A stretch of DNA of 63,383 nt, the filler included, from Deltaproteobacteria bacterium (lineage in GTDB: Bacteria; JACQOV01), in assembly GCA_016202395.1 (NCBI GenBank). It is 4 parts of 4 records of this genome, joined end to end, with 100 filler letters (N's around TTAATTAATTAA, not from the genome) between each part and the next. Parts side by side here need not be neighbours in the genome. Positions count along the whole stretch, not along the records: positions 1 to 25,408 come from JACQOV010000054.1; 3 more parts are not named here. One strand, written 5' to 3'. The notes below the pieces were generated by a model, which saw only the letters and a program-made list of their open reading frames with translations, had not been told where the DNA came from and did no database searches. Positions 7,701-10,700 of this stretch are shown here, in pieces (within the stretch, counting starts at the first letter, position 1; each line of letters begins with the position of its first letter). The position numbers and the translations under genes were made by a program.

Positions 7701-10700
7701 GCCGGCCGCTAGAGATTCAATTTTTGCCGGCGATGGCCTATTCGACTCCTTTGTCGAGCACGACAAGTTTCCCCAACATGGATTTGTTGCGAGCTGAGGC
7801 AAATGTCTTAATCACGTATCAGTACGATACGAATCCCTTCACGGAGGGGGACGACGGTTGGGACGATTGCTCCAACGTAGGGTTGATCGGGAGTGAGACT
7901 CGGACGGAGCGAGAGGATCTCGATGGGAACGGGAGCTACGAAGAGGAGTTCACGCAGATCCAAGAGCTTTGCTGGGATAGAGCGGGACGGATTAAAAAAC
8001 AGCGGCTTTCTCAAGATCAGGAAGGGGATAACCTCCTCCCCAGATCTTACAAGAGTCAGCTGCGTTACGATGTCTACAGCCGCGTGGTGGAACGGGAGGA
8101 TCTCTACGAGGATGGAGAGGGAAAGAGCAGCGGGGTGGTGACTGCCTATCGATGGAAGGATCACCTGCCGCAGTTGAGCTCTAATGGCTCGGCGATTGTG
8201 GTCGGTTACAGTGGAAAGAGCCTCACCCTTGTCGATAAGGCTTTCTATGATGAAAAGGGGCGGCTGACGGCTCTACTCTTCGGGAATGGGACGGCCATCG
8301 ATTACACCTTTGATGACGATGAACGTCTCTCAGCGCTCTTCGGCTGTGCGAAAGAGGATTTTGACACAACCACCGGTGTTTGCAAGATGGTGGAGCGAGC
8401 CGATCAGTCTCTCCTTTTCCAGACGATCACCGACCGAGACCCCTCAGGGCATATCCTCCAGGTGACCGAGGGCCCGGTTCGGTGGTCAACGCGGCGTCAG
8501 ACGGAGGATCTGGTTTGGAATTTTGATTACAACGGCCTCCATCAATTAACAAGCGCTAAGGCTCAGTGGGAAAAAGAAGGAAAAGAATTCTACTGGGAGC
8601 AATTTCATTACGATGGCCTCGGCAACCGCGCTGTGGTTGATAACTGGGCCGAAGTCTGCGAGGAGAGTGCAAGTCAGCCGGCCTCAGCCTCTTCGACTCC
8701 AACGGTTCAGCTCGATCCGAAAGTCCTTTCCCGAGGAGGGCATTACCAAGTTCCCGATTCGTTCCGTAGGGCGGGCGGTTCCCTGGACCCAAGTGTTCCT
8801 ATCCCACAGCCGCAGCCGGTTCCTGTTCCTGGCACCTGTTCTCGATGGGAGGGAGATCAGCAGTATCTGTATGGGAACAACGACCGTTTGGCCTCGATCA
8901 TGGTAGAGCCTCTCGATGGAGGAAATGAGCAAACGGAGCGTTGTTTTCACTGGAATCCCGATGGAACCTTGGAGAAGGATTGGGTTCCCAAAGAGGGGGG
9001 GAGTTGCAGCAGCACCCAATCATCGACATCGGGATGGAGCGGAGGAAAAGAGCTCTTCTGGAACGCGGCAGGGAGACTGCAACGTGCTAAGATCCACGCG
9101 GAAGAAGGGATTTCAGAAGGGACCTACTTCTATGGTGTTGATGGGAGACGGGTTCGGAAGGTCGAGACCCTCGCTGGTGGTACCACGAGGCTTACCGATT
9201 ATTTCGGCGACCAGCTCACTGCGGTTGACAACATTCCAATTCGGTATTTTGGGATCCCTGGCACTTCTATGGTGGTTGCCTCGTTGCAAGACACCAGTTT
9301 AAGTTTTGAGCCAACCCCAGTGTCGGGGCCGATCGCTTGCGGCCTTTTTACCTCTAGCAACCCCGATACTCAGAATCCGTGGGGCTTGTTGGCGGTTTTG
9401 TTTTATTTATTTTTGTTCATTGGGCTTTGGCGGTGGAAGATTCGGTTCCATCCCGGGATCTTTGAAGGGATCGCTTTGGCGGTGGCCGTGATTTTCTTTG
9501 TCGAGGTCTCCATGCCGTATTCGGTTCAAGCAGCGCCGGTTCGCCAGAAGCAGAACTTAACAACCAGCCAAACACAGGCATCGGAATCTGCAGAATGCAC
9601 CCCCGACCCGGAATCTTCCGCCCGATTCTTTATGAACGATTACCGAGGGAATCTGGCGGTGGTGACCGACTCTAAAGGGTGCACGCTCCAGGCCCAGGCC
9701 TACACCGCCTTTGGTCAGGACGCCTGCGATCTGAACCCCGATCTCTGTATGGATGCCACCTCCACGCCAACGCTGGCGTCTTCGGCCGATCCTGATTTTA
9801 TCGGCAAGGTGAAGGACGAGGTGACCGGCTATACCGTGACCGATGCCCGTGACTACGATCCGACGCTGGGCCTCTTTATCAGCCCCGAGCCTCTCGATGA
9901 ATTGGCCATCCAGATCAGTGGGGGGGACGTGCAGGAGCTCTATAAAGACCCTCTCCGGATGACCAGCCCGTACGCCTACGCAGGGAACAACCCGATCAAC
10001 CTGGCCGATCCCAGCGGCGAGTTTGGCATACTCGCTTGGGCCATTGCTCAACTTCTTATTAAATTTCTTGTTGCCTTTACCATTGCGATGATACCGCAGA
10101 TCGCTGTGGGGATTGCTGCGAAGATGCAAGGGGTGGAGTACGATTGGGGAAGGGCATTGGCCGCAGCGGCGGTCACGGCCCTTGCTTACGTGGCGTTTGT
10201 AGAGTTCGTGGGGCCCTCCCTCAATAGCTTTGCCATCGAGCACAATATCCCTGTTGTGAAAACACTTTTCGCGAGTCGTGCTTTCCAGATGGCCGCTAAA
10301 ATGGGGGCAGGAGATCTTGCATCCATTACGGGAAATCTGGCGACCCAAAGAGGAAACATGGGGAAGGCCAGTTTCTGGGAGAAGCCGTTCCGAAACTTCC
10401 GAGATAATTTTACTCCCATGGATGCCTTCTTTGTCGAGTTTGATTTTGCTCAAGGGATGGGGGCCTTCCCCTTTATGAAGAATCTTGGAAAAGTAACCGT
10501 TGTGGGTTATCGTCTCGCTCGGAGCGCTTTGCGAACTGGCTACGAACTCAATGTGGCGTATCAACGATACCAGCAGCAGACGATCCAATTAGGATTCGAG
10601 GTGGGACATTGGTTGGCCCAATCGCTAGCTAGCTTTGTTGGAGGTGTGGTTCAAGACATGGTAGGGCCTCCTCTAGCTGACATATTCCTCTACAATCATT

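Follow-up and report, generated by a model that had tools for sequence, protein, structure and literature searches.

A conserved pair of hydrophobic segments, predicted to form a membrane hairpin, at the shell/core junction of a TcB/TcC-like Rhs protein

The window analysed here is a stretch of 63,383 nucleotides (nt), filler included, from the assembly GCA_016202395.1 of a Deltaproteobacteria bacterium, probably a binned assembly. It consists of four contigs joined artificially (25408, 26754, 8328 and 2593 nt). Spacers of N, 100 nt each with TTAATTAATTAA in the middle, occupy 25409-25508, 52263-52362 and 60691-60790, and therefore adjacency across these positions is meaningless. The first contig encodes P0001, a 3053-amino-acid (aa) Rhs protein similar to TcB and TcC. 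Its insert at residues 2533-2597, between the Rhs shell and the Rhs core, is the subject of this analysis. The original prediction had pointed to positions 9301-9660, which correspond to residues ~2521-2640 of P0001. Signal peptides, topology and the signal-peptidase site were read by rule from the sequence, based on hydropathy, charge distribution and the -3/-1 rule. The features of P0001 are as follows, where TM stands for a predicted transmembrane segment.

1742-10903, plus strand: P0001, 3053-aa TcB/TcC-like Rhs protein (open reading frame (ORF), TIGR03696, SpvB)
1742-1864, plus strand: putative Sec-type signal peptide with a basic n-region, hydrophobic IVSSAVLFSLIYGPLL, and AYA followed by SS (from the translation)
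9338-9385, plus strand: Cys signature C-G-L-F-x-S-x-[DN]-P-x-x-Q-x-P-W-G, residues 2533-2548 (10/16 columns invariant)
9380-9430, plus strand: TM1, Trp-to-Trp hydrophobic helix of 17 residues, 2547-2563 (7/15 columns invariant)
9431-9466, plus strand: basic cluster and tight loop R-W-K-I-R-F-H-P-G-I-F-E, residues 2564-2575 (5/12 columns invariant)
9467-9511, plus strand: TM2, signal-peptide-like h-region, residues 2576-2590 (1/15 columns invariant)
9512-9532, plus strand: c-region with the candidate signal-peptidase-I site M-P-Y-S-V-Q-A followed by A, residues 2591-2597 (S at -4 and A at -1 invariant)
9533-9613, plus strand: length-variable linker ending in an invariant E-C-x-P (26, 26, 40 and 69 residues in four homologues)
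9614-10015, plus strand: Rhs core, from RFFMNDYRGN to NPINLADPSGEFG (TIGR03696; 52/118 columns invariant)
10016-10900, plus strand: C-terminal domain of ~295 aa, opening with hydrophobic helices at 2759-2795 and 2805-2827 (Kyte-Doolittle scan)

The Kyte-Doolittle (KD) scan of the whole 3053-aa protein (19-mer, threshold 1.6) flagged the stretches 2545-2567 and 2569-2597; elsewhere in the ~3000 residues only 2759-2795 and 2805-2827, in the C-terminal domain, were positive. The two junction stretches agree with the original prediction, which described a Cys-TM-basic segment after MVVASL and then a hydrophobic segment with an AxA-like site. The strings were found as described: IACGLF to WGLLAVLFYLFLFIGLWRWK at the first stretch, and at the second GIALAVAVIFFVEVSMPYSVQA followed by A, a linker and ARFFMNDYRG.

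The insert lies ~20 residues past the last shell strand and ~30 residues ahead of the Rhs core. MVVASL (2510-2515) is followed by a 17-residue acidic and Pro-containing linker and then by C2533, and the core entry after the insert, RFFMNDYRGN, starts at 2628. The N-terminal flank of TM1 is acidic, and Trp is present on both sides of TM1. The loop 2564-2575 is net positive, with 2-3 positive charges, and has 12 residues in 4/4 homologues. TM2 contains 12 uninterrupted hydrophobic residues and then E/Q. In the four homologues, KD values are 1.7-2.0 for TM1 and 1.8-2.2 for TM2. Hessa-type insertion energies, a crude simple sum, are -0.4 to +0.6 for TM1 and +2.2 to +3.5 for TM2, a pattern in keeping with a true membrane helix and, after it, a weaker segment that resembles a signal peptide. 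By rule, TM2 reads as a signal-peptidase-I substrate, with the positive n-region RWKIRF, a 12-residue h-region and small residues at -3 and -1. The candidate site is present in 4/4 homologues as V-Q-A, V-Q-A, A-S-A and V-Y-A, with V/A at -3 and Pro at -5/-6. An AlphaFold2 (AF2) model of residues 1570-2769 from the four-sequence alignment is unusable, with a mean predicted local distance difference test (pLDDT) value of 34.8; it has helices at ~2546-2564 and ~2574-2589. Two invariant Cys residues, Cys2533 (9338) and the Cys of E-C-x-P (9605-9610), bracket the hairpin on the predicted periplasmic side, where it is possible that they form a disulfide staple. The core contains three further invariant Cys in its first 45 residues.

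Relatives were searched for in two ways. The word-index search with residues 2380-2780 of P0001 (5683 word-sharing candidates) gave six proteins: P0001 itself, P0005, P0006, P0007, P0008 and P0009. P0005 (3022 aa) and P0006 (3137 aa; from an NCBI metagenome-assembled genome labelled Deltaproteobacteria bacterium) carry the insert and are ~44-52% identical to P0001. Of the other three, P0007 and P0009 were inspected and P0008 was left out. P0007 and P0009 are canonical Rhs proteins that lack the insert and in which the last shell strand leads to the core with no hydrophobic segment, and in the MAFFT alignment canonical Rhs proteins cross the shell/core gap with ~25 hydrophilic residues. The exhaustive HMMER search with residues 2470-2700 against 1.84 billion representatives gave four hits, namely P0010, P0005 and two spurious low-complexity repeat proteins. 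P0010 is 84% identical to P0001 and has the insert; its N-terminus is lost at the end of its 6.8-kilobase contig. The insert is therefore found in 4/4 real members of this family, hereafter the fused family, with zero indels between the Cys and the A-x-A site. P0010, P0006 and P0005 each come from a different contig and source. Because the same insert with the same loop length occurs in four independent sequences, it is confirmed as a real feature, neither chance nor an assembly artefact.

Invariance per segment was calculated from the alignment of the four members (P0001, P0010, P0006 and P0005). The Cys motif and the core entry are the most invariant segments (62% of columns each), followed by TM1 (47%), the core (44%) and the loop (42%); the preceding shell shows 7-32% and TM2 7%. 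The Cys motif and TM1 are thus conserved as well as the Rhs core, and TM2 keeps only its hydrophobicity and length. Being only 7% invariant yet hydrophobic, TM2 matches how signal peptides evolve. A scan of genome contigs revealed only two generic Rhs cores (Flavobacterium and Chryseobacterium) and no family member. The metagenome scan with the family alignment gave 201 pattern matches, 0 of them related, and the exact TM1-motif DNA pattern gave two matches in the metagenome collection, both by chance (a short-chain dehydrogenase/reductase and a high-GC membrane protein). With four sequences found, the fused family is very rare, and its importance is conceptual, not ecological.

The SpvB N-terminal domain of P0001 is marginal: it scores 23.6 bits as a fragment, against a cut-off of 22, and 20.7 bits in the whole protein. 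The matches to TcdB_toxin_midN (E 0.008) and PF05593 (E 0.011) are below cut-off, and the Rhs shell of P0001 is very divergent. P0006 and P0005 have precomputed matches to PF05593, PF25023 and PF12256, and the relatives of P0001 collectively carry PF03534, PF12256, PF05593 and PF25023. AF2 gives beta-hairpin repeats for the P0001 shell, but at pLDDT ~35. The N-terminal signal layout of P0001 is also seen in P0006 and P0005. The core matches TIGR03696 at residues 2680-2759 (E 2.3e-11, 44 bits versus the cut-off of 32.5) and contains an autoproteolysis-type DPxG site, DPSGEFG, within NPINLADPSGEFG at 2746-2758; D, P, S, G and F of this site are invariant in 4/4 family members. The DPxGEF site aligns weakly to the autoproteolysis region of SGS1 and SGS4. 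Searches against solved structures, by single sequence and by profile, gave only weak matches to SGS4/SGS1, Tre23 and Rhs around DPxG.

The C-terminal domain of P0001 has no Pfam family at E<=0.1, DUF2929 at E 0.43 being at chance level, and Atlas lists no named relatives for it. Its AF2 model is all-helical with a mean pLDDT of 36.4 (four-sequence alignment) and is unusable. The C-termini after DPxG in P0001, in the canonical P0007 and P0009, and in the short core genes described below start with or contain hydrophobic, often Gly-rich helices. By analogy, these C-terminal domains are suggested to be cargo that acts on membranes, like the contents of SGS1 or Tse5.

The gene adjacent to P0001 encodes a shell of the same type that ends at the junction.

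10972-16224, plus strand: P0002, 1750-aa coreless Rhs/TcB-like shell (PF05593, E 2e-12)
16102-16221, plus strand: tail of P0002, with G-C-S-S, a spacer of ~14 residues, a TM with P-x-G-F, and RRRRR (sequence, KD scan)

P0002 carries a signal peptide, starts like TcB and contains RHS repeats, and no Rhs core was detected in the domain scan. Its alignment to the shell of P0001 is in register (E 1e-10), and the protein ends ~20 residues past its last shell strand, at the same shell/core boundary. The likeness between the Cys-TM-basic segment of P0001 and the end of the 1750-aa protein, noted originally from the sequence, holds: P0002 does end with Cys, TM and RRRRR. In the MAFFT alignment, P0002-type tails fall on the Cys motif, TM1 and the basic cluster of the fused proteins. 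The distance from the Cys to the first basic residue is, by our own count, 31 residues in the fused family versus 32-35 in P0002-type tails. The layout in the fused family (Cys in 4/4, TM1, R-W-K/R-x-R) is weaker in its basic part than the RRRR(R) of P0002-type tails.

Three relatives of P0002 were found (P0013, P0014 and P0015). The Cys-TM-Arg tail is seen in 3/4 members of this family, being kept in P0013 and P0015 and absent from P0014. P0015 and P0006 have consecutive accessions and locus tags, and P0014 and P0005 share the same longest-contig value, 85339 nt. On these grounds, the pair of coreless shell and fused protein genes recurs in at least one other assembly, probably two. Sec-type N-terminal signal peptides are read on P0001, P0006, P0002 and P0015.

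Directly downstream of the two shell genes, 16312-18432 encodes a 706-aa exported protein, possibly a lipoprotein (AAPSGC). It matches the VolA/Pla-1 phospholipase family in part, with E 1e-19, which is far under the family cut-off. Its close relatives are 60% and 42% identical, and none of its 17 relatives lies on a contig with the size of those carrying the other shell pairs. The 706-aa gene was considered as the split partner of P0002 and was rejected; it is lipase-like, has no Rhs core, and its best E against the C-terminal part of P0001 is 1.2.

The second contig carries stand-alone genes for Rhs cores. They were spotted during the count of TM segments over all ORFs of the window.

25516-26673, plus strand: cassette 1, Rhs core and variable C-terminus, signal peptide lost at the contig end (TIGR03696, E 8e-17)
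27302-27793, plus strand: degenerate cassette, signal peptide and EVSYFY but no core (no family match)
27851-28900, plus strand: cassette 3, signal peptide (MAHA followed by E), Rhs core and C-terminus (TIGR03696, E 3e-23, positions 1-75/76)
29013-30218, plus strand: cassette 4, signal peptide (MAQA followed by E), Rhs core, DPDG, TM and C-terminus (TIGR03696, E 1.3e-19)
30972-32147, plus strand: cassette 5, signal peptide (VYA followed by E), Rhs core, Pro-rich linker, TM and C-terminus (TIGR03696, E 6e-22)
32995-34029, plus strand: cassette 6, signal peptide (MAHA followed by E), Rhs core and Gly-rich hydrophobic C-terminus (TIGR03696, E 1.2e-21)

These five genes and one degenerate copy are built of a Sec signal peptide (A-x-A followed by E), an Rhs core and a variable C-terminus. 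The signal peptide is complete in 4/5 core cassettes; the contig of cassette 1 begins at 25509, within CPMARA followed by EVSY. The cores begin with EVSY[F/V]HSDHLGS, a canonical Rhs core start, right after the signal peptide. All five match TIGR03696 at positions 1-75 of 76 (E 8e-17 to 3e-23) and also the last ~105 positions of NF041261 (from ~1132/1156 to 1238-1260 of 1261). The 5' parts of the cassettes are 60-87% identical in DNA. After DP[S/D]G, their C-terminal domains are unrelated to each other, and several have a hydrophobic or Gly-rich helix. No shell gene precedes the cassettes in the visible part of their contig. Searching plasmids by tblastn with a cassette gave 1254 records of generic Rhs cores, uninformative on signal-bearing modules elsewhere. 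Short core and toxin clusters are common in Atlas, which is a lead only and does not bear on signal peptides.

The cassette array (25516-34029) is interspersed with type II toxin-antitoxin pairs, namely DUF4258/DUF2283, Phd/PIN, and an unassigned ORF with ParE, and no obvious immunity gene follows any cassette in the array. An 85-nt repeat with two internal palindromes lies just 3' of three cassettes (28915-28999, 32181-32265 and 34070-34154; 66-89% identity) and may be a repetitive extragenic palindrome-like element or a terminator. A 69-nt repeat, 93% identical between 27262-27330 and 30237-30305, covers the ribosome-binding region and the first signal-peptide codons (MKRWFV...). Its second copy (30237-30305) has no core after it and is probably what remains of a cassette.

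By analogy with P0002 and the cassettes, the insert of P0001 looks like two modules placed back to back, a tail-type Cys/TM/basic module and an internal signal-peptide-like segment. The first matches the C-terminal tail of P0002 both in architecture and in position. The second, with the basic loop as its n-region, then the h-region, Pro and S-[V/A]-x-A, resembles the N-terminal signal peptides of the cassettes. A coreless, apparently tail-anchored shell and core modules with export signals are present in one assembly, and therefore the fused protein mirrors a split form. The cassettes together with the coreless shell are the strongest support for the idea, put forward in the original prediction, that P0001 is a Rosetta-stone fusion of shell and core genes.

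We favour the explanation that the insert is a conserved inner-membrane helical hairpin at the shell/core junction of a Sec-exported, TcB/TcC-like cocoon protein. The N-terminal signal peptide would start the export of the shell of ~2500 residues. TM1, with its acidic flank outside and a Trp belt at each end, would stop the transfer and anchor the shell. The positive loop (2564-2575) would remain cytoplasmic, and TM2 would restart the export, now of the core and the C-terminal domain. Both halves would thereby come to lie side by side on the periplasmic side, tethered to the membrane. Signal peptidase I would then probably cut after A2597, leaving a tail-anchored shell and a free core-toxin piece, which may plug the end of the neighbouring shell. 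The products would be those expected from split genes. The parts of this account are not equally firm. Insertion into the membrane as a hairpin is likely. Cleavage by signal peptidase I after A2597 stands slightly below an even chance, and whether the explanation holds in full is evenly balanced.

Several observations weigh against this explanation. Membrane insertion, topology, cleavage and the assembly of the two pieces are all inferred from sequence, and the topology in particular rests on hydropathy, charge distribution and the -3/-1 rule. The c-region is long, the h-region ending ~10 residues ahead of the site, and in bacteria the cleavage of an internal signal right after another TM is uncommon. 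The C-terminal domain has its own hydrophobic helices right after DPSGEFG, which would tend to integrate into the membrane during Sec export and are a difficulty for the model. The AF2 model of residues 1570-2769 is no guide to how the loop faces the shell. The tail is absent from P0014, the probable partner of P0005. The cassettes and the two shell genes are on different contigs of a binned assembly, and the cassette cores are just 25-35% identical to the core of P0001; what they share is therefore an architecture and does not reflect a recent fusion. Among the 1.84 billion representatives, no split relatives of the fused family were found. The fusion idea keeps its support from the coreless shell and the signal-bearing core genes of the assembly, and loses the pairing of the 1750-aa and 706-aa genes as the two halves. 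Finally, no sorting enzyme was found among the scanned ORFs of the window.

A wider view of the locus is a two-part, Sec-exported Rhs system in which a coreless shell, held at the inner membrane by its Cys-TM-Arg tail, is plugged in trans in the periplasm by exchangeable core and toxin modules. The 3053-aa protein would be the covalently fused form, whose hairpin signal peptidase would cut, possibly together with a sorting enzyme that depends on the Cys. In such a system, toxins could be exchanged with no recombination, by using any of several separately exported modules, and the hairpin of the fused form would bring the two halves together before cutting. We consider this view possible but doubtful.

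The hydropathy, charge and conservation that speak for a cleaved hairpin would equally suit a permanent anchor, in which an uncleaved hairpin only tethers the closed (plug) end of a periplasmic cocoon and the small-x-small motif is unused. The c-region is long for a signal-peptidase site, and the Cys of CGLF and that of E-C-x-P could staple the base of a stable loop. A permanent anchor is nevertheless unlikely. S at -4, V/A at -3, A at -1 and Pro at -5/-6 are kept in 4/4 members while the rest of TM2 drifts, the h-region of 12 uninterrupted hydrophobic residues is short for a stable TM, and at this boundary the stand-alone core genes have signal peptides that look cleavable. Conservation of the Cys motif and TM1, in turn, goes beyond the need of a passive anchor and resembles that of the Cys-type signals recognised by intramembrane CPBP proteases. 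The insert could be an internalised sorting signal of this kind: a dedicated Cys-dependent intramembrane protease of the myxosortase/CPBP type would take TM1 with its Cys motif as substrate, the shell would be cut and lipidated at the Cys and moved to the surface, and TM2 would be removed by signal peptidase, which would leave nothing of the hairpin in the products. In its three parts (invariant Cys, TM, basic cluster) and in length, the segment fits the published class. JDVT-CTERM has a DP at +9, near the [D/N]-P found here 7-8 residues past the Cys. TM1 is conserved in sequence, as expected for recognition within the membrane, and P0002-type tails (GC[SG][SG]...RRRR) resemble such signals. 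On the other side, the internal segment has no match among the NCBIfam models of sorting domains at E<=10 (0 families), and the P0002 tail matches only Loki-CTERM, at E 0.007 and 16.6 bits versus the cut-off of 19.9. The scanned ORFs of the window yielded no CPBP, rhomboid, exosortase or Lgt-like gene, and the contig of P0001 has no polytopic ORF of >=150 aa. The metagenome scan for the exact TM1 motif brought no other protein beyond its two chance matches, and the basic cluster is weak (R-W-K-x-R versus RRRRR in P0002). We regard an internalised sorting signal as quite unlikely.

The two helices might instead be packed in or on the cocoon as a shielded element that inserts into the membrane of a target and not of the producer. 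The best, though weak, matches among solved structures are SGS1 and SGS4, in which DPxGEF is followed by predicted TM helices buried in the shell; likewise, Tse5 is reported to encapsulate a pore-forming fragment. The cargos of SGS1 and Tse5, however, follow the autoproteolysis site, whereas the hairpin of P0001 precedes the plug and would not be released by cutting there. P0001 also has a Sec signal peptide, and by the positive-inside rule TM1 and the positive charges should stop the transfer. The likeness to the tail of P0002 and to the signal peptides of the cassettes is left unexplained as well. A shielded element is very unlikely. The anatomy of the insert does look as if the last part of one gene ran into the first part of the next, as would arise if two neighbouring genes were fused by a sequencing or assembly error. 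That origin is already refuted and its probability is negligible: four independent sequences share the 12-residue loop in frame with no stop, and the loop has no ATG, the sole in-frame GTG/TTG codons being inside the h-region. An internal translation start before TM2 was also considered and rejected, as there is no ATG in the loop and the feature is not conserved.

Other parts of the window carry unrelated genes. Right after the Rhs locus, 18436-22702 is a defence or toxin-antitoxin type cluster, containing HipA with a helix-turn-helix/DUF1488 partner, and two AbiEii nucleotidyltransferases with an AbiEi antitoxin. At 39133-43068 (minus strand), the large subunit of a class I/II ribonucleotide reductase is split by an intein that bears a LAGLIDADG homing-endonuclease domain. 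At 46803-52023 (minus strand), two large ORFs of 1026 and 711 aa lie side by side and have no Pfam family, and the first has an N-terminal signal or anchor.

Rhs and Tc cocoons are generally seen as single chains, or TcB and TcC pairs, that enclose their own C-terminal toxin as they fold in the cytoplasm. The locus described here differs in three points: the hairpin at the junction, a sister shell that ends there with a sorting-type tail, and genes for plug and toxin with their own signal peptides. Together they suggest that shell and plug can reach the periplasm separately and assemble there. If true, this would be a natural system in which to study how a cocoon closes and how it is loaded with cargo in trans. 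It would also exemplify, in a bacterium, processing by signal peptidase in the manner of a polyprotein, and would open a new class of substrates to Cys-type sorting signals.

The closest known system is the TcB-TcC cocoon of Tc toxins, a two-protein Rhs shell with alternative TcC toxin subunits. P0001 resembles it in a marginal SpvB/TcB-type N-terminus, a putative Rhs shell, the core with DPxG and the variable C-terminal cargo, and common to both is the idea that two polypeptides, only one of them with the toxin, can build a cocoon. In contrast to TcB-TcC, the split or hairpin is here at the shell/core boundary and not in the middle of the shell, and both parts have, as read from their sequences, Sec signals and a membrane anchor; Tc toxins are not known to have such signals. 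No TcA-like ORF was found among the scanned ORFs of the window. Classical Rhs loci with downstream orphan core and C-terminal modules resemble the cassettes in the conserved core-encoding 5' part and the variable 3' parts. Unlike the classical orphans, each cassette has its own start codon and a signal peptide fused directly to the first core residue, and we know of no described Rhs orphan module with an export signal. The structural polyprotein of flaviviruses contains a stop-transfer helix, a short cytoplasmic basic loop and a signal-like helix ending in small-x-small, which is cut by the host signal peptidase. As in these anchor/signal pairs, two ectodomains of one chain would be separated from each other beyond the membrane in P0001, although the viral polyproteins belong to the eukaryotic endoplasmic reticulum and P0001 is bacterial.

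The Cys-type tripartite C-terminal sorting signals (MYXO-, JDVT-, Synerg- and CGP-CTERM) have an invariant Cys, a TM with conserved positions and a basic cluster, as the segments here do, and share with them an overall length of ~32-35 residues. Such signals and the intramembrane CPBP proteases are treated in a preprint by Haft and in Guo et al. 2025 (mBio), and according to the former, conservation of residues in the TM of a Cys-type signal suggests that it is recognised inside the membrane. Their C-terminal position is found in P0002, P0013 and P0015. The P0001 segment, unlike them, is internal, ~490 residues from the C-terminus, is followed by a second hydrophobic segment, and has no match to a hidden Markov model; no cognate protease was found among the ORFs scanned. 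Mosquito SGS1 and SGS4 and Tse5 of P. aeruginosa are Rhs shells that enclose hydrophobic helices, and in SGS1 and SGS4 DPxGEF stands directly before predicted TM helices, as in P0001. Those cargo helices come after the plug, unlike the hairpin of P0001, which precedes it and has anchor and signal features. A limited full-text search of open-access literature brought up no paper that describes a membrane hairpin between Rhs shell and core, nor one on Rhs core modules bearing signal peptides, and the passages located in the polymorphic-toxin survey PMC3482391 mention neither.

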